Part shown: positions 2,719-23,152 of the stretch, piece after piece
Layout of the letters: every line of letters begins with the position of its first letter
How positions within the stretch are numbered: the first letter of the stretch is position 1
From: Candidatus Peregrinibacteria bacterium
GTDB taxonomy: Bacteria > Patescibacteriota > Gracilibacteria > UBA1369 > PNNO01
Reading direction: 5' to 3'
DNA length: 28,439 bases
Assembly: GCA_030595015.1 (NCBI GenBank)
Contig: JAUVDZ010000001.1
Coordinates: 1-28,439, forward strand
The notes under the pieces: generated by a model
Told to the model about the DNA's origin: nothing
The model's input: only the letters and a program-made list of their open reading frames with translations
The model's database searches: none
Translations under genes and position numbers: made by a program

Positions 2719-2747
2719 ATTTTAACATTTATGTAATCTATTATCAA
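2719..2747 (-). promoter_or_regulatory. tRNA-Arg promoter TTGATA-N17-TAAAAT with an extended -10 (TGn)
   Basis: The -35 at 2747-2742 overlaps the secDF TGA stop. TG-T-TAAAAT ends at 2719. The predicted start site is ~2712, inside the terminator's 5' arm. Confidence 0.65.
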
Positions 2748-5700
2748 CGTTCTTTTCTAGATTCTGCTCTGTTGTTCCACCAGACAAGTACAGGACTTGC
2801 CACAAAGATTGATGAGTAAGTACCAATGATAGTACCAAGTACTAATGCAAGTACGAACCAGAAGATTGATGTGCTTCCTAAAATCAAGAGTGCTACTAAT
2901 GTGAATAGCGTAGAGATAGATGTGTTTATTGAACGAGCCATTGTTTGTGTTAAGGCTGCGTTTGCAACATCTTTGAATGTGACACCTCTTCCCATATCTT
3001 TTAAGTTTTCACGCACTCTGTCGAATACAACGATTGTGTCATGAACTGAGAAACCAAGTATTGTTAGAAGTGCAGTAATAAATAGGGCATCTACTTCAAC
3101 ATTAAGAACATTTCCTAATATCGCAAATATTCCAACTACGATTATTACATCATGTGCTAAGGCAACGATTGCAGATAATCCGAATCTCCAAGGAGAAACT
3201 TTTTTAGGGATTTTCCTGAATGCAAATGCGATATAGAATACAATTAATATTAATGCTATTACAAGTGCGAACATTGCTTTACTCTTCATTGTTTCTCCAA
3301 CAGTAGGACCCACTGTTGTGAATCTTGGTTCATCAAGTGCCCCGAATCTTTCTTCAAGTTTTTCTAATATCTGATCGTGAACTTCTACTGAGATGTATTT
3401 AGTTTTGATAATATATCCATCAGAAGACCAGATTATTGAAGCAGTACTAAAGTCTACAGCTTCTTCAACATCCGGAACAAATTCTGCTCCACCTGTTTCA
3501 GTTGTTGCAGCTACAGCTCCATCATCAGATCCATAAATCTCATTACCGATTTCTTCAAGAGCAGTGCTTAAATCTTCCTGAGCAACTTCCTGTTCAAATT
3601 TAACTTGCATCAATGTTCCTCCAGAAAAATCGATTCCGAATTTAAGTCCGAATGTGAAAATTGAAACAATCGCAATTGAGACTAAGATTCCTGAGAAAAC
3701 GAACCATTTTTTACTGTTACCAATAATATTATAAACTTTTCGTTTCTTTTCAGTTGGTTTAGCTCCTAATAAGAAGTAATTTTTAGCAAATCTTGTTCCA
3801 ACCATTAAATGTAAGAATGTTTTTGTAATAGTAATAGCCGTGAACATTGAAACTAAAATACCTGCAGCTAAGTTGAAAGCGAATCCCTGAATGATTGAAC
3901 TTCCAAAATAAAACAGAATTGCACAGGTAATCAATGAAGAGAAATTCGAATCTCTAATTGAGCTCCATGCACGGGCAAATCCAACATCAATAGCTGACCC
4001 AAGAGGTCTTCCGTCTCTAATTTCTTCTTTAATTCTTTCAAAGATAAGTATGTTAGCATCAACTGCCATACCAATCGATAAGATCACACCGGCTACACCA
4101 GCAAGTGTTAGAACGATTGGATTAGCAAGCAGGAATACTATAAAGAATAGGGCAAACACCGCCAGAACTGACGTGACCATTTTTTCCCACCCATTGTCTT
4201 TGTCATTTAATATTCGCATCATTAAGACGACGAACATCGTGACAGCAATAATAACTGCGACTATGGTATTTAATTGGGATTGTATTAAGAAAAGTAGAAT
4301 TACTGCGTAAACTCCTAATGCAACAACTGCCATTAATCCTAGAAGTCTGTAGTAGAGAGTCATGTAAATACCAAGAATGATCAATCCAATCATACCTGCC
4401 CACAAGCTCTTAACTAAGGCATCCTGACCAAGCTCTGCACCGATTGTGTATTGACCTGACAATACAATTGGTGCTGGAATTGCACCTGTATTTAAGTCAC
4501 GAGCTAAAGTAGTAGCCTCATCAATAGTGAAACTACCTTCGATAATTGCATTCCCTCCTGTAATTTTTGATCTTACATTTGGAGCAGAAATTAATTCACC
4601 TCCAACAAAAATTGCTAAAGGTTTTCCAATATTTTTATCTGTTATTTCAGCAAACAACTCTGCCCCTTCATCATTAAATGCGATTGAAACATAAGGTTCA
4701 TAAAGTTGATTGAACTGAACATCAGCATGTACGAAATGCTCACCAGTTAAGTTAGTATCCTGCCATTGGTTTGGAATAGTTGAGAAGAAAATTGATTCAT
4801 ATTTAACCTGTTTCTCAACTTTTGTTTCTGTAGTTCCTCCAACAATTGAACCTGATTTAAGTACGTGGTATCCAAATTCAGTTTCAACAGGATCACTTAC
4901 TTCATCTTTTTCTTCCATTATAAGTGCTGCTGATTCGAATGCTTCTGTGTATGCACCTTCACCTGCAGGTTTGATTAATACTCCACCTACTTCTTTTGCA
5001 GCTGAATCATCATTATATTCATCTGATAAAGTTTTAAATTCTTCACCATCACGTGCACGGCTTGAAATTTCTTCAGCTAATGCCAATGCTTCTTCTTTTG
5101 TTCTCGTAACTTCTTCTCCAGCTCTTTCAGCTCCTGCGTAAGCAACTAAAACATGAGAAACATTTACTTTCTTTTCATCAGTAACTGTTCTGTCAGCGTC
5201 TTGAGTTTCAATTAATTTGATTACGTTTAATCCAGTTAATTCGATTAGTTCACCTTCAGGAGAAACTGTGTATTCTCCGCTTGTTTCAATTGTTCCTGAA
5301 TAAACTTGTCCTTCTGATAAGTCGAATATTTTACCAGCAATTGCTGAATTTAATTCGTCTTCAAATTTCCAATCTTCTTCTTGAGTATAAGTAACTACCG
5401 CAGGATTTGCCTGCTCTTCTTCCTGAGCGACTATGGCAAATTCTTCTCCGCTTTGAATTCTTTGTAATACATTATTTGCCTGCGTTTCAATTTCTTGTTT
5501 TTCATTTGGATCAATTTCGTCTTTTCTTTCTTTAAATTCTAATTGGATTGTTTTACCAATAGTTGCTTTTGCTTCTTCTACATCAACTCCGGCTAAATCA
5601 ACTATGATATGACTTTCACCCGCAGCTTCAGATACTACAATTCTTGGTTCGCTTACCCCAAGTGCATTTACACGCTTATTAATAACCTCTTTTACACCTT

Positions 5701-5926
5701 CAATGATAGCTTTTTGATCTTCTGATGGTACTTTTCTGAGATCAATTTTATAATCAAGTTGAGCTCCTCCTTGTAGGTCGAGGCCTAAATGAACATGCTG
5801 ATTTTTTATTTCATCAGGAGTCCAGCCGACCAATGGAGCTTTTGTCTCTGGTGGTAGATCGAGTATCCCGAGTATCACAGCAATAAATAGAATAACTAGA
5901 ACTTTAATAAAAGTTTTTCCTTTCAT
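2744..5926 (-). CDS. secDF: Fused protein translocase SecDF with parvulin-type PPIase modules inserted in the P1 domain
   Basis: SecD motifs LGLDLQGG, RVNALGVSEP, IG..LG and IGMAVDANILIFERIKEE. SecF motifs GIDFSGGT, VGPTVG, GFSVHDTIVVFDRVRE and GTYSSIFVA. Parvulin motifs VNVSHVLV and VETEFGYHVLK. Confidence 0.97.
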   Translation of the reverse strand: MKGKTFIKVLVILFIAVILGILDLPPETKAPLVGWTPDEIKNQHVHLGLDLQGGAQLDYKIDLRKVPSEDQKAIIEGVKEVINKRVNALGVSEPRIVVSEAAGESHIIVDLAGVDVEEAKATIGKTIQLEFKERKDEIDPNEKQEIETQANNVLQRIQSGEEFAIVAQEEEQANPAVVTYTQEEDWKFEDELNSAIAGKIFDLSEGQVYSGTIETSGEYTVSPEGELIELTGLNVIKLIETQDADRTVTDEKKVNVSHVLVAYAGAERAGEEVTRTKEEALALAEEISSRARDGEEFKTLSDEYNDDSAAKEVGGVLIKPAGEGAYTEAFESAALIMEEKDEVSDPVETEFGYHVLKSGSIVGGTTETKVEKQVKYESIFFSTIPNQWQDTNLTGEHFVHADVQFNQLYEPYVSIAFNDEGAELFAEITDKNIGKPLAIFVGGELISAPNVRSKITGGNAIIEGSFTIDEATTLARDLNTGAIPAPIVLSGQYTIGAELGQDALVKSLWAGMIGLIILGIYMTLYYRLLGLMAVVALGVYAVILLFLIQSQLNTIVAVIIAVTMFVVLMMRILNDKDNGWEKMVTSVLAVFALFFIVFLLANPIVLTLAGVAGVILSIGMAVDANILIFERIKEEIRDGRPLGSAIDVGFARAWSSIRDSNFSSLITCAILFYFGSSIIQGFAFNLAAGILVSMFTAITITKTFLHLMVGTRFAKNYFLLGAKPTEKKRKVYNIIGNSKKWFVFSGILVSIAIVSIFTFGLKFGIDFSGGTLMQVKFEQEVAQEDLSTALEEIGNEIYGSDDGAVAATTETGGAEFVPDVEEAVDFSTASIIWSSDGYIIKTKYISVEVHDQILEKLEERFGALDEPRFTTVGPTVGETMKSKAMFALVIALILIVFYIAFAFRKIPKKVSPWRFGLSAIVALAHDVIIVVGIFAILGNVLNVEVDALFITALLTILGFSVHDTIVVFDRVRENLKDMGRGVTFKDVANAALTQTMARSINTSISTLFTLVALLILGSTSIFWFVLALVLGTIIGTYSSIFVASPVLVWWNNRAESRKER

Positions 5927-18412: not shown

Positions 18413-20197
18413 TTATTTAACTGTTACAGACTTCGCTAAATTCCTAGGCATATCCGGGTTGTTTTCACGTAATAAGGCGAGTTGATATGCAAGTAGTTGT
18501 ACTGGAATGATGTTGATGATAGGAGACGCATTGCCTCCATCCGGTACTTTTATCCAATAATCGAATACTTCGTGGTTGTCTGGGGAAACACCGATTATAT
18601 AGCCGCCTCGTGATCCGACTTCGATTGCGTTTGATATTATTTCGTGTTTAGTCTCGTCGTTTGAAACTAAGGCGATGCAAGGCACTCCGTCGTGAATTAA
18701 TGCGATAGGGCCGTGTTTGAGTTCGCCTCCGGCAAATCCTTCAGCGTGAATGTATGAAACTTCCTGTAATTTGATTGCAGCTTCTAAAGCCATTGGGTAG
18801 TTCATTCCTTTTCCTATTACATACATGCTTTCGTGGTCTTTAATTTGCTTAGCGAGTTTTAAAATATGTTCTTCATACCTCGGATTTAACATGTCATTGA
18901 TTTTACTTGCTGTATCAACGAGCAAAATTTTTCCTTCGTCTAATTTGTCAGCGCAGGCGTATGCGAGCAAGGTGAGAATTGCCATTTGAGCGGTTGTTGC
19001 TTTTGTTGATGCTACAGCCTTTTCTGGCCCTGCTTTGATGTAAATTGAATAATCTGAGATTCGATCCATTGAAGATCCTTCAACATTTATAATTGAAAGG
19101 ACTTTTGCACCTTTTTTCTTTGCAATTTCAAGAGCTTCCATTGTGTCAGCGGTTTCACCTGATTGAGAAATAGCAATAACCAGGCTTTTATCAGTAATAA
19201 AGTTTTGCATTGATGGAAATTCTGATCCAAAAGTTGTGTTTACATGTCGTTCTGCAACTTTTGAGAATAAATATGAGCCAGCGAGTGCAACTTTTCCTGC
19301 AGTTCCACATCCAATTATATAAGTTCCATAAGCACTTTTAATTTCTTCTGCAATTTTCATAATCATTTCATCATCCTGATTAATTGCACGTGCAATTGTA
19401 TCTTTTTGTTCAGAAATTTCTTTAATCATAAAATGAGGGAAGTCGCCTTTCTCTGCGCTTTCAACATCCCAATCAATCTCAACAACACGTTTATCTATTT
19501 TATCTCCGCTTTTAATATCAAAAAATTCAACTTTATCATTAATAACAACCATTTGATCATCATCTAAATACATTACATTACGAGTGTATTCTAAAAATGC
19601 AGGAATATCCGAAGCAACAAAGAATTCGTCTTCGCCTTTTCCAACAATTAACGGAGATCCGCGACGTGCTGCGATTAATTTATCTTCATCAGCGCACATA
19701 ACTAAAATTGCATAACGACCTTCAAGTCGTTCAATTGCTTTTTTAACTGACTCAACAATGTCATTATCTTTTTTATATTCCTGAATTAGTTGAGCAATAA
19801 CCTCTGTATCAGTTTCTGATTCAAACTTGTAACCTTTTTCTTTAAGTTCATTCCTTAATTCAATATAATTTTCGATAATTCCATTATGAACAATAGCAAT
19901 CGACTTATCTGTAGAATAATGCGGATGTGCATTTTCAACAGTAACTCCACCATGAGTCGCCCAACGCGAATGTCCCATTGCTAAACTGCACTCACGTTTA
20001 AGATCGCATTCAGGAGGTGGGTTATCAAAATCAAAATCGCTGATTTTTCCTATCTCTTTATAAATAGAAACTTCGCCATCGCATTTTGAAGCAACGCCCC
20101 ATGAATCATAACCTCGATATTCGAGCTTCTTTAAGCCTTTAATGACAAGTTCGCTTGCATTAGTTTTTGGCCCTTTATAGGCAAATATTCCGCACAT
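18413..20197 (-). CDS. glmS: Glutamine--fructose-6-phosphate aminotransferase
   Basis: True start MCGIF at 20197 (catalytic Cys1; the ORF-track extension overlaps purQ). Also LEYRGYDSWG, GHSRWATHG, VHNGIIEN, SQSGETADT, ELKHGPIALI and PRNLAKSVTV. Confidence 0.97.
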   Translation of the reverse strand: MCGIFAYKGPKTNASELVIKGLKKLEYRGYDSWGVASKCDGEVSIYKEIGKISDFDFDNPPPECDLKRECSLAMGHSRWATHGGVTVENAHPHYSTDKSIAIVHNGIIENYIELRNELKEKGYKFESETDTEVIAQLIQEYKKDNDIVESVKKAIERLEGRYAILVMCADEDKLIAARRGSPLIVGKGEDEFFVASDIPAFLEYTRNVMYLDDDQMVVINDKVEFFDIKSGDKIDKRVVEIDWDVESAEKGDFPHFMIKEISEQKDTIARAINQDDEMIMKIAEEIKSAYGTYIIGCGTAGKVALAGSYLFSKVAERHVNTTFGSEFPSMQNFITDKSLVIAISQSGETADTMEALEIAKKKGAKVLSIINVEGSSMDRISDYSIYIKAGPEKAVASTKATTAQMAILTLLAYACADKLDEGKILLVDTASKINDMLNPRYEEHILKLAKQIKDHESMYVIGKGMNYPMALEAAIKLQEVSYIHAEGFAGGELKHGPIALIHDGVPCIALVSNDETKHEIISNAIEVGSRGGYIIGVSPDNHEVFDYWIKVPDGGNASPIINIIPVQLLAYQLALLRENNPDMPRNLAKSVTVK

Positions 20198-20210
20198 AGT
20201 TTTTTTAGAA

Positions 20211-21524
20211 TTAAGCTTTATAAATATCCATTGAATGTGGATTGTGGAAGATATGTGTTTCAACAATCTTTGATGCTTCATCTGCATCGCAGGTTAGCGA
20301 CCATCTTTTTCCTGCATGGATTCGCTGCACACCTTTTATTTCAAAATGGTTTTGAATTGTTTGTAATCGGCTTTCACCAACTGTATCTTCTTTATTAAAT
20401 GTTAGATAGCTTTCACCTCCAACTTCTTTTTCGTCGATTTCACTTAATCCTTCTGCAGGATCAAACTCGTAATATTTATCACCAATTTTGATTAATGGTG
20501 ATTCTTTTGCCATATTCACTATTTCACCGGATTTCAATAAAGCATCGGCAGTTTCAACTTTATCAATATCACCTGATGTTTTAATTCCGTAATATAAAAG
20601 TTTTTTAAGTTTAGCTTCACCAAATCCTAAATTGTGAATCGCTGATTCAAGAGTTCTTTCTTCGTTATCAGTGATTACAGTATCAACAAATACTTCAATG
20701 TCAGGTTTGTTATAATTTCCAACTTCACCAACTTCAAAAGCTGGTTTATTCATCACTAAATCAGTTGGTCGCGCAATTTCGAAACTTTTTCCAATATATT
20801 CACGAATTGATTCAAAAATCGGATCGCCAACCTCAGTTCTTTCAGGATGTGGCATCAAACTCATTACATTTCCTTCAGGATTACAAACTCCAGCCAAATT
20901 TAGCAAAGCTCCGTTTGGATTAGTAGGGAAGTCTTCCTTAATTTCACCGTTTTCATCACAATATCTAAATACGGTTTGTTCATTTTTCAAGAGTAACTCT
21001 TTCATTTCAGGATCAATCGAAGTAAATCGGCCTTCTCCATGAGCAACCGGGATTCTTAATAATTGATCCTGTTCATAATAGTTAAATGCTGATCGGCCTT
21101 TTGGTACAGCGTTTTTTATGTAAATCCAGTCATTATAAAATCCAGTTCCTAAAATATTCCCGTCTTTATCAACTCGTTTATTCCATGCTAATGCCATTTC
21201 AACATGTTTTTTATCTAAGCCAGGAATTAGCCCAGCTTCAACAACTACCTGTGCTCCGTTACAAACACCTAAAACAGGTTTTCCTTTATTTGCTTCTTCC
21301 CGAACTTTATCAAGTAATGCGTTTTTAGATGCGATAATTCCGCTGCGTCCTCGATCTTCATAACTAAATCCACCTGGAATAAAAAATCCATCAAAACTCG
21401 CATAATCAACTTCTGTGTCATTCCATCTTATTAGTTTAGGTTCCATCCCGCTTCGCTTAATCGCCCTTAAAGCTTCAAGTTCGCAATTGGTTCCAGGAAA
21501 CAATATTACAGCTATTTTTGGCAT
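20211..21524 (-). CDS. purQ: FGAM synthase glutaminase subunit PurQ fused to two C-terminal PurS-like modules
   Basis: FPGTNC, PGGFSYED, LGVCNG (C88), PVAHGEGRF, NPNG and MPHPER (H226/E228) lie within aa 1-245. The remaining ~190 aa contain two PurS-like repeats. Confidence 0.9.
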   Translation of the reverse strand: MPKIAVILFPGTNCELEALRAIKRSGMEPKLIRWNDTEVDYASFDGFFIPGGFSYEDRGRSGIIASKNALLDKVREEANKGKPVLGVCNGAQVVVEAGLIPGLDKKHVEMALAWNKRVDKDGNILGTGFYNDWIYIKNAVPKGRSAFNYYEQDQLLRIPVAHGEGRFTSIDPEMKELLLKNEQTVFRYCDENGEIKEDFPTNPNGALLNLAGVCNPEGNVMSLMPHPERTEVGDPIFESIREYIGKSFEIARPTDLVMNKPAFEVGEVGNYNKPDIEVFVDTVITDNEERTLESAIHNLGFGEAKLKKLLYYGIKTSGDIDKVETADALLKSGEIVNMAKESPLIKIGDKYYEFDPAEGLSEIDEKEVGGESYLTFNKEDTVGESRLQTIQNHFEIKGVQRIHAGKRWSLTCDADEASKIVETHIFHNPHSMDIYKA

Positions 21525-21525
21525 A

Positions 21526-22593
21526 TTATATTTTGATTATTATGTCTTTTAATTGCTTAGGAGCATTTGTGATATTTTTCGCTCCTGTACGGGATATTAT
21601 TAGCATATCTTCGATGCGAACACCAAAGTTTTTGGGTAGATATATACCCGGTTCTATTGTGGTGATCATATTCTCTTTTAGTTTGTATGGTTTCTCGATT
21701 CCAAGGTTTGGTAATTCATGGATATTTAGTCCGGACCCATGCCCTAAAGCATGCTGGAAATATTCTTCCATATTTTTTTCTTTGATTGGTTTCATTGCGG
21801 CTTTTACAACATTTGCAACCGTAGCATTATGTTTAAGTGCATCAATTGCAGCTTGCTGTGAGGCCAGAACGGTTTCATAAACCTTAGCCTGTCGCGTTGT
21901 GGGTTTTGAAGTAAAAAATGTTCGTGTCATATCTGAACAATAGTGTTTATATTTCACACCCATATCAATTAAAATTGTGTGTCCTTTTTTAAGTTTTCGA
22001 TTTGTATTTTGATGATGGGGGATTGCCGAATTAGATCCAAAAGCAACAATAGGATCAAACGAAGAATCTTCAGCTCCTAATTCGCGTTGAGCTTTAATTA
22101 TAAACCATTCAACTTCAGTTTCGGTTCTGCCAACTTTTAAGTAATTTAAGACTTCATCAAGCACTTGTTCGTTTATTCTCTGCGATTTCCTCATACGTGC
22201 GATTTCATACCCCTGTTTGATTTCCCTGATTTGTTCAACAATATTCCCGGCCTTTTTAAATCGAACTCCTTTTGAGATTTTTTTAAGCCCAGCATATTGA
22301 TTTACTGTTAAATAGTTTTCTTCGAATCCTAAATCTTTTACACGGAATTTTTTAAGGATTTTTGGCCAGTCTTGTTTCCATTTTTTATCTATTTGCATAA
22401 CTTCAAAATCGGGTGGTACGATTTTTTTAGCGTATTCGAGGTAGCGGAAGTCCGTGAAAAAATATGCTTTTCGTTTTGTGATTAAAATCATACCGCGCGA
22501 ACCTGTGAATCCTGTTAAATAATAAACATTAAGAGGATCACTTATGAACAACGCATTGAAGTTTTTAAAGTGTTTTCTGATTTGTTTAAGCAT
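21526..22593 (-). CDS. Xaa-Pro aminopeptidase / M24 peptidase
   Basis: N-terminal creatinase-like domain (N..YLTGF.GS, TDFRY), DMG...Y.SDMTRT, H.LGHG.GL.IHE.P and TIEPGIY...GVRIED. Confidence 0.93.
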   Translation of the reverse strand: MLKQIRKHFKNFNALFISDPLNVYYLTGFTGSRGMILITKRKAYFFTDFRYLEYAKKIVPPDFEVMQIDKKWKQDWPKILKKFRVKDLGFEENYLTVNQYAGLKKISKGVRFKKAGNIVEQIREIKQGYEIARMRKSQRINEQVLDEVLNYLKVGRTETEVEWFIIKAQRELGAEDSSFDPIVAFGSNSAIPHHQNTNRKLKKGHTILIDMGVKYKHYCSDMTRTFFTSKPTTRQAKVYETVLASQQAAIDALKHNATVANVVKAAMKPIKEKNMEEYFQHALGHGSGLNIHELPNLGIEKPYKLKENMITTIEPGIYLPKNFGVRIEDMLIISRTGAKNITNAPKQLKDIIIKI

Positions 22594-23152
22594 TTTGGAG
22601 GAAGTATTTAATTATATCTTCAGGCTCTTTTATTTCTTGCGGTAAGTTTTTGAGTTTTTGTATGATTTGATGCTTTCTGTAGCCAAGATTTATTAAAGCT
22701 CCAATTGCATCTTCGTTTAAATTTGAAGGAGTTTTATAGTTTTCCGGCTCACTTGTTGCACTGATTTTTTCTTTAAGATCAATTACAATACGTTCTGCTG
22801 TTTTTTTGCCGATTCCTTTTGTTTGAACAAGAAGATCAACATCTCCTTTTGAAATTGCGAATCTAATTGAAGATAGGGGATTGTTTAGAATTTCAAGTCC
22901 TGATTTAGGACCAACTCCTGAAACTGAGATTAATAACTTGAATGTTTCGAGTTCTTCAAATGTCGCGAATCCATATAAACTAATATCATCTTCACGAACT
23001 GCTGTGTGAATGTATAGTTCAACGGAATCATTGGCTTCGTGCTCGCTTAGATAATTGTGGGTTGCTGAAACCAGATATCCAATTTCTCCAGCATTTAAAA
23101 TAATTGCTGAAGGCAGCTTTTTTTGAATTGTTCCTGTGAGGTATGCGATCAT
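22586..23152 (-). CDS. ruvA: Holliday junction branch migration protein RuvA
   Basis: MIAYLTG, LYIHTAVRED..LYGF, LISVSGVGPK, GIGKKTAERIVIDLK and ALINLGY. Confidence 0.96.
   Translation of the reverse strand: MIAYLTGTIQKKLPSAIILNAGEIGYLVSATHNYLSEHEANDSVELYIHTAVREDDISLYGFATFEELETFKLLISVSGVGPKSGLEILNNPLSSIRFAISKGDVDLLVQTKGIGKKTAERIVIDLKEKISATSEPENYKTPSNLNEDAIGALINLGYRKHQIIQKLKNLPQEIKEPEDIIKYFLQNA

Follow-up and report, generated by a model that had tools for sequence, protein, structure and literature searches.

The window, which is the whole stretch of DNA analysed here (28,439 nt from a Candidatus Peregrinibacteria bacterium), carries on its reverse strand a gene that we call purQ-SS (20211..21524; stop codon TAA at 20211-20213). 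The open reading frame, its homologues and AF2 modelling describe a 437-aa fusion of a PurQ glutaminase with a putative tandem PurS adaptor. The first-pass annotation had read a PurQ followed by two PurS modules in one protein and marked it at 20211-20708, which corresponds to aa 273-437 of the 437-aa protein. An M24 Xaa-Pro peptidase gene lies upstream (21526..22593, reverse strand; Pfam PF00557 and PF01321), with its stop 1 nt from the purQ-SS start. Downstream is glmS (18413..20197, reverse strand; GATase_6 and SIS domains), whose likely start is the ATG at 20197, 13 nt past the purQ-SS stop. A longer glmS start at 20287, 30 codons upstream and running into the purQ-SS stop (20197-20287), was rejected as an artefact of the ORF caller. 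The order M24 peptidase, purQ-SS, glmS was identical in loci L044 and L049. The wider order ruvA-pepP-purQSS-glmS (window 18413-23152, reverse strand) was kept in L044 and in L049, a Peregrinibacteria locus, with pyk and ruvC lying farther away. Elsewhere in the window, positions 2744-5926 (reverse strand) encode a 1060-aa SecDF fusion in which a parvulin-type PPIase (Rotamase) is inserted in periplasmic P1 at about aa 250-360.

The N-terminal part of the protein, aa 1-246 (20787..21524, reverse strand), is a PurQ class I glutamine amidotransferase domain, as shown by TIGR01737, the triad and the fold. It scored 208.8 bits with TIGR01737, passing the cut-off of 177.8, and the fusion scored under the cut-offs of NF002957 and NF002252. 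The triad residues C88, H226 and E228 (codons 21261-21263, 20847-20849 and 20841-20843, reverse strand) were invariant in 19 relatives. The fold matched PurQ of T. maritima (3d54_D) with Z 23.1. When the full-length model (pLDDT 84, pTM 0.83) was used in fold searches, the alignments covered the PurQ part only. The PurQ part is thus an intact glutaminase, with activity predicted from its triad. It is followed by a variable linker, aa 247-273 (20706..20786, reverse strand), in which identity among relatives was 15-67% vs 72-91% for PurQ and pLDDT was lowest. PurS-like module 1 comprises aa 274-347 (20484..20705, reverse strand; HHalign and VIA Z) and PurS-like module 2 comprises aa 370-437 (20214..20417, reverse strand; HHalign). 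Between them lie a beta-hairpin insert and the inter-module linker, aa 348-369 (20418..20483, reverse strand), recognized from AF2 strands at 350-355 and 359-363 and from gaps in the alignment. About 40-48% of this region was gapped in a 125-row alignment, and the hairpin was shorter or missing in many relatives.

All 19 full-length close homologues had a matching length (436-448 aa) with the tail in frame; two of them are labelled in their sources as Patescibacteria and Gracilibacteria proteins. Against G005, pN/pS was 0.06/0.53 for PurQ, 0.069/0.49 for module 1 and 0.068/0.66 for module 2. Among close relatives both tail modules are therefore under purifying selection comparable to that on PurQ, and the linker at 247-273 and the inner hairpin at 348-369 drift. 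The equal length and frame of the homologues and the selection on both modules confirmed that the fusion reading frame is real and that its tail is not a chance extension. The genome assembly is fragmented and of draft quality (1.13 Mb, 79% complete, 151 contigs), and a sequencing or assembly error could in principle have merged two genes. However, the frame was uninterrupted in 12 genomes of the family, in at least 28 named loci and in 40 genomes of the Legionellaceae family, and we consider the likelihood of such an artefact practically negligible.

The tail was modelled with high scores (pLDDT 95, pTM 0.89), and its predicted secondary structure consisted of two beta-alpha-beta-alpha-beta modules (model from the 125-row alignment). 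Among 48,161 chains the tail matched best, with Z 10.7, the N-domains of large PurL from Salmonella and human, which superposed on 136-139 residues with an rmsd of 2.8-3.2 A and 7-9% identity. The next were three PurS crystal structures, matched on module 1 with Z 4.9-5.3 (VIA), and the remaining matches formed a background at Z 3.8 or less. With Foldseek, ranks 1 to 18 were all large PurL. In HHalign comparisons with canonical archaeal PurS, module 1 gave a probability of 90.0 (E 1.6e-6) and module 2 one of 94.5 (E 8e-8). The two modules matched each other with a probability of 95.9, vs 0.2 for the reversed control. Free tandem proteins of 150-160 aa, found with the tail profile, exceeded the Pfam PurS cut-off, and in two Woesearchaeota such a protein did so in both halves.

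Direct searches gave less. PF02700 scored 14.5 bits on the window protein, below its gathering cut-off of 22.2 (E 0.042), and among 20 close homologues 10 matched it at E <= 1, the best at 8.5e-6. The tail sequence found no match in a direct search of the PDB, a 20-row tail profile found chance matches only, and a 125-row profile had T. maritima PurS as its top match, at E 0.48; at that value the sequence search alone was not taken as proof. None of the NCBIfam models covered the tail, and a feature search of the ESM Atlas returned only leads under 0.9. It is the fold match, the profile matches of the modules to PurS and to each other, and the transitive link through the free tandem proteins that together identify the tail as a pair of PurS modules. 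At the level of predicted structure and sequence profiles, the C-terminal 165 residues were confirmed as a single-chain PurS pseudo-dimer behind a complete PurQ, in agreement with the first-pass reading, on which the reading frame, TIGR01737, fold and HHalign converge.

The motif from which the modules had first been recognized (D-P-x-G, then GK, then N-P) held only in part. The Asp and the closing Asn were kept in both modules (D286 100%, N337 97%, D/N380 95%, N428 95%; 125 rows). The Pro was missing in both, module 1 reading D286-N-E-E and module 2 D380-T-V-G. LGF occurred only in module 1, and G-K, N-P and the Gly of the motif only in module 2. The family motifs of module 1 were I-T-D-N-E and S-G-E-x-x-N-x-x-K-E, and that of module 2 was D-x-x-G followed by G-K-x-W and N-P. 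The PurS-like part thus takes the form of two modules inside a 437-aa chain, as opposed to the stand-alone, homodimerising PurS of about 80 aa.

FGAM synthase catalyses step 4 of de novo purine synthesis. Its synthetase subunit was present in the genome as a single PurL of 776 aa, on a different contig from purQ-SS. This PurL scored 653.8 bits with TIGR01736 (cut-off 525.75) and was also over the cut-off of NF002290. It opens with the FGAR-AT_linker domain at aa 15 and has no PurS-like N-terminal extension of about 200 aa. The separate small PurL lacking an N-domain that had been predicted from the window is therefore present, and it has no glutaminase domain either. With TIGR01735 and TIGR01857 both PurQ and PurL of this genome were far under the cut-offs.

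No purS was detected in the genome by Pfam or by a PurS profile across all six frames. Because the genome is only 79% complete, this absence leans on the relatives. In the family, the fusion was present in 12 of 13 genomes and a small PurL in 13 of 13, and purS was over the cut-off in 0 of 13; one fusion-bearing member, G007, consists of one contig (99%). Likewise, no purS passed the cut-off in a further 26 genomes with the fusion, which include the G007 assembly. Weak PurS matches in these 26 genomes fell in frames of 420-451 aa, which is the size of the fusion, and none of the 26 had a PurL frame over about 830 aa. A large PurL chain (about 1240-1300 aa) was found in none of 34 genomes. A separate purS together with a full large PurL, which would have spoken against the fusion serving as adaptor, was thus not encountered in the genomes searched.

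The genome also contained homologues of purF, D, N, L, M, E, C, B and A, and a purH fragment at the end of contig C31. The pur genes are spread over at least six contigs, and purQ-SS lies outside any pur cluster. Peregrinibacteria are described as able to make nucleotides, unlike most CPR bacteria (PMC4736985), and this gene set fits that account. A predicted complex of PurL with the tail alone scored 0.20 (mark 0.32), a value given no weight in either direction.

A survey across taxa showed that the layout is widespread, not rare. The tail profile matched 219 clusters (50% identity), mostly fusions or fragments of them. We examined 169 proteins, namely the 20 close homologues and the best representatives of the 219 clusters: 85 were a complete PurQ with tail, 28 were partial, and most others were fragments or free tandem PurS. 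Among the matches listed, the fusion occurred within Patescibacteria in Peregrinibacteria, Peribacteria, Gracilibacteria and Magasanikbacteria, and outside them in Marinimicrobia, Opitutales, Coxiellaceae and the cultured species Legionella bozemanae and L. longbeachae. Among 301 sampled Patescibacteria 15 matched the tail, three of the 15 as PurSSL. Loci L178-L180, also Patescibacteria, encode PurS-PurS-PurL proteins of 946-978 aa and a short PurQ.

The fusion was present in 40 of 120 Legionella-family genomes, and in the five Legionellaceae genomes tested it was the sole PurQ-type glutaminase. Five Legionella-family genomes without the fusion (G352, G353, G358, G360, G367) had no PurQ-type domain either, which suggests purine auxotrophy. 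In L. longbeachae the gene order is purL(778 aa)-purM-purQSS-purC-purF-purD-purN-purE. In L. pneumophila, Lpg1676 and Lpg1678 have been named FGAM synthase I and FGAM synthase II (PMC5928044); their spacing, judged from the gene listing alone, equals that in L. longbeachae.

The position of the gene bears on whether the tail still serves PurL. It is possible to imagine a PurS-derived tail that is degenerate, has another partner, or serves oligomerisation by strand swapping between chains. The loss of the canonical D-P-x-G, the module 1 motif of its own (I-T-D-N-E, N-x-x-K-E) and the place of the gene outside a pur cluster in the window lineage would fit such a change. However, Legionella, Marinimicrobia and several Patescibacteria keep the gene in clusters of the purL-purM-purQSS-purC-purF type, the tail is constrained as strongly as PurQ in close relatives, and in the genomes searched the small PurL has no other PurS. 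A lost adaptor role is thus very unlikely.

The origin of the fusion was examined with a tree of one 242-column PurQ domain, with rows from the best 80 matches of one genome scan and rooted on monomer-PurS systems, archaeal only. All 23 fused rows formed one clade (100/96). Fused and free-tandem PurQ formed a joint clade (100/97), in which the free-tandem group alone had 87/78. Both stood apart from the PurSSL and monomer-PurS systems, and the PurQ of PurSSL systems was a separate clade (100/100); a larger quick tree agreed. The nearest unfused loci among the matches listed carried purL-purQ with a free tandem purSS behind them, and in 30 of 36 free purSS genes among these matches the start was at most about 20 nt away from the purQ stop. 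A tail profile built from fusions only gave medians of 57 bits for free tandem PurS, 17 for PurSSL N-termini (range 11-25) and 16 for monomers. PurQ extended 32-58 aa past HPER in unfused relatives, with one outlier at 93, and in the window protein 45 aa separate HPER from module 1. The fact that this distance falls within the range of unfused PurQ tails indicates that the linker at aa 247-273 is most likely the old PurQ C-terminal tail.

The simplest history is that two abutting genes, purQ and tandem purSS, were joined once, as the single fused clade beside purL-purQ-purSS operons and the linker matching a PurQ tail indicate. The first-pass annotation had left open an independent fusion or a permutation intermediate, and the former is favoured. 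A large PurL (S-S-L-Q) cut and rejoined as Q-S-S plus L would have the same domain inventory, and the tail's best fold match is the single-chain N-domain of large PurL. However, any tandem PurS would be expected to match in this way, and the identity is 7-9%. Both enzymes are small-type by score (for PurQ 209 bits with the small-type model against 86-93 with the large-type ones; for PurL 654-658 against 132-174), which makes a permutation or fission of large PurL unlikely. The nearest relatives among the matches listed, placed in a tree that holds no large-PurL rows, are unfused L-Q-SS operons in which Q already precedes SS. We regard the permutation as highly improbable.

Reversed polarity, in which Q-SS is ancestral in a wider clade and free purSS arose by fission, is less easily set aside and is still unlikely. 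Fused and free-tandem rows are sisters, the tree does not fix the ancestral state, and monophyly of the free-tandem group is only 87/78. Against this, the PurSSL and monomer-PurS outgroups both have a tailless PurQ, so that one fusion is the shorter path, and free-tandem operons occur in many phyla of both domains among the matches listed. On the preferred single joining, the proposal that the fusion hard-wires a 1:2 stoichiometry needs to be divided: the count of two PurS was most likely fixed by the tandem duplication before the fusion, and the fusion ties the pair to PurQ.

Inside the fused clade, the rows of Legionellales, Marinimicrobia and Opitutales nested among Patescibacteria, with the non-Patescibacteria rows beside Magasanikbacteria-type rows (100/98). 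A Patescibacteria-only fused clade was rejected (AU p 0.0165), the group having been defined after the first tree was seen. Large PurL is usual in Gammaproteobacteria. The nesting and the AU rejection, from one domain and biased sampling, hint at transfer from Patescibacteria. Tentatively, the enzyme may have arisen once in or near Patescibacteria and moved with the pur cluster to the ancestors of Legionella/Coxiellaceae and of Marinimicrobia, replacing large PurL, although we hold this to be somewhat less probable than its opposite.

We propose that PurQ-SS is very probably the glutaminase-adaptor subunit of a two-protein FGAM synthase with the small PurL, with a history of duplication, single fusion and spread; the proposal draws on sequence comparison and predicted structure. 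The PurQ domain, judged by its triad, would hydrolyse glutamine. The tail would act like the PurS homodimer or the large-PurL N-domain, bridging the glutaminase to PurL and making glutamine hydrolysis and ammonia transfer respond to the binding of FGAR/ATP in PurL. Pathway logic and co-occurrence point to the 776-aa small PurL as the binding partner, presumably at 1:1, with the tail in the PurS2 site on the tether of the flexible 27-residue linker. In the proposed history, a duplication of purS would first have produced a purL-purQ-purSS operon with a free tandem gene. A single fusion of purQ with the purSS next to it would have followed, in which the PurQ tail turned into the linker. The fusion would then have spread, probably with the pur cluster, to Patescibacteria, Legionellales, Marinimicrobia and others, and the operon would have been broken up later in the Peregrinibacteria lineage of the window.

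The known systems share parts of this design. The PurS homodimer is equivalent to the N-domain of large PurL (PMC3815217), which relays substrate binding in the synthetase to the glutaminase and the ammonia tunnel (PMC7124931, PMC13013826), and PurS is needed for purine synthesis in B. subtilis (PMC3261824). Like PurQ-SS with PurL, the PurS2-PurQ-smPurL complex (T. maritima 3D54; Bacillus subtilis) has three parts, with small-type PurQ and PurL and a PurS fold in each module. However, PurQ-SS and PurL are two gene products, not three, and two diverged, non-identical modules on the PurQ C-terminus take the place of a PurS homodimer. Large PurL (Salmonella 1T3T/4LGY, human PFAS 9N9W) also has a single-chain PurS pseudo-dimer, which superposes over its whole length. 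There it sits at the N-terminus, joined to the synthetase (S-S-L-Q), whereas PurQ-SS carries it at the C-terminus of the glutaminase and leaves the synthetase as a protein of its own. The mdPurL or PurSL of Brown et al. 2011, PurS-PurS-PurL with a separate PurQ (PMC3261824), likewise consists of two proteins, with a tandem PurS-like region on one catalytic subunit and purS usually absent. Its adaptor is on the N-terminus of PurL, in contrast to the C-terminus of PurQ, and the PurSSL proteins of L168-L180 have 946-1015 aa vs 776 aa for the PurL of this genome. Free tandem PurS is, among the matches listed, the nearest relative in both the PurQ tree and the tail profile scores, and it shares the order Q then SS; its operons have a stop codon between purQ and purSS that PurQ-SS lacks.

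Free tandem PurS of 143-240 aa was encoded right after purQ in loci L064-L080, L086, L089-L113 and L181. Its hosts, among the matches listed, were DPANN including Woesearchaeota and Nanoarchaeota, Methanotrichaceae, Eisenbacteria and further bacterial phyla. We found no paper on it. Other joinings were also observed. Proteins of 888 and 907 aa extend PurQ-SS (L039:6004-8667, L182:4884-7604), the L039 extension being PurC and PurE, and in P0059 Q-SS runs into PurC. PurL-PurQ fusions occur at L107:3358-6783 (1142 aa) and L115:672-3956 (1095 aa); no PurS-like N-domain was detected in either, and by profile neither genome has a tandem PurS. One Aenigmarchaeota record, P0153 (MBL7206802.1), carries tandem PurS on the PurM N-terminus and was for that reason rejected as an mdPurL. 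P0061 (1142 aa) was rejected as a Q-SS-L fusion; its extension is SMC/Rad50-like, and this single record of PurQ-SS with a SMC/Rad50-like ATPase is probably a read-through or assembly artefact. A 272-aa ORF just past purL in L004 (5791-6609) has a C-terminal HNH-like Cys/His motif.

The PurQ-PurS-PurS layout had been taken for a third architecture. Since PurS-PurS-PurL with PurQ was already described in 2011, Q-SS with L is at least the fourth layout of FGAM synthase and one of several; free tandem PurS and PurL-PurQ fusions exist as well. The literature consulted otherwise distinguishes two forms, large PurL and PurS/PurQ/PurL. We found no paper on the Q-SS layout and no family model for it, although it may be mentioned in the original reports on the T. 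maritima and B. subtilis complexes or in a structural review. PurQ-SS is a single-origin, widespread variant of a known enzyme and its chemistry is not new; specialists may find it neat rather than startling. The joinings of this enzyme so far are S-S-L-Q, S-S-L + Q, L + Q + SS, L-Q and Q-SS + L. These independent joinings of the three parts suggest that either tether allows the adaptor to work. The coupling role of the adaptor is still under study (PMC7124931, PMC13013826), for which a culturable organism with a two-protein enzyme would offer a convenient test system. If the transfer reading is true, the asymmetric C-terminal adaptor would let PurS coupling be probed without a synthetase tether. 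Many bacteria, Legionella included, have a small PurL and lack an annotated purS; the finding would mean that step 4 is still complete in them, with the adaptor inside a protein that databases label as plain PurQ.
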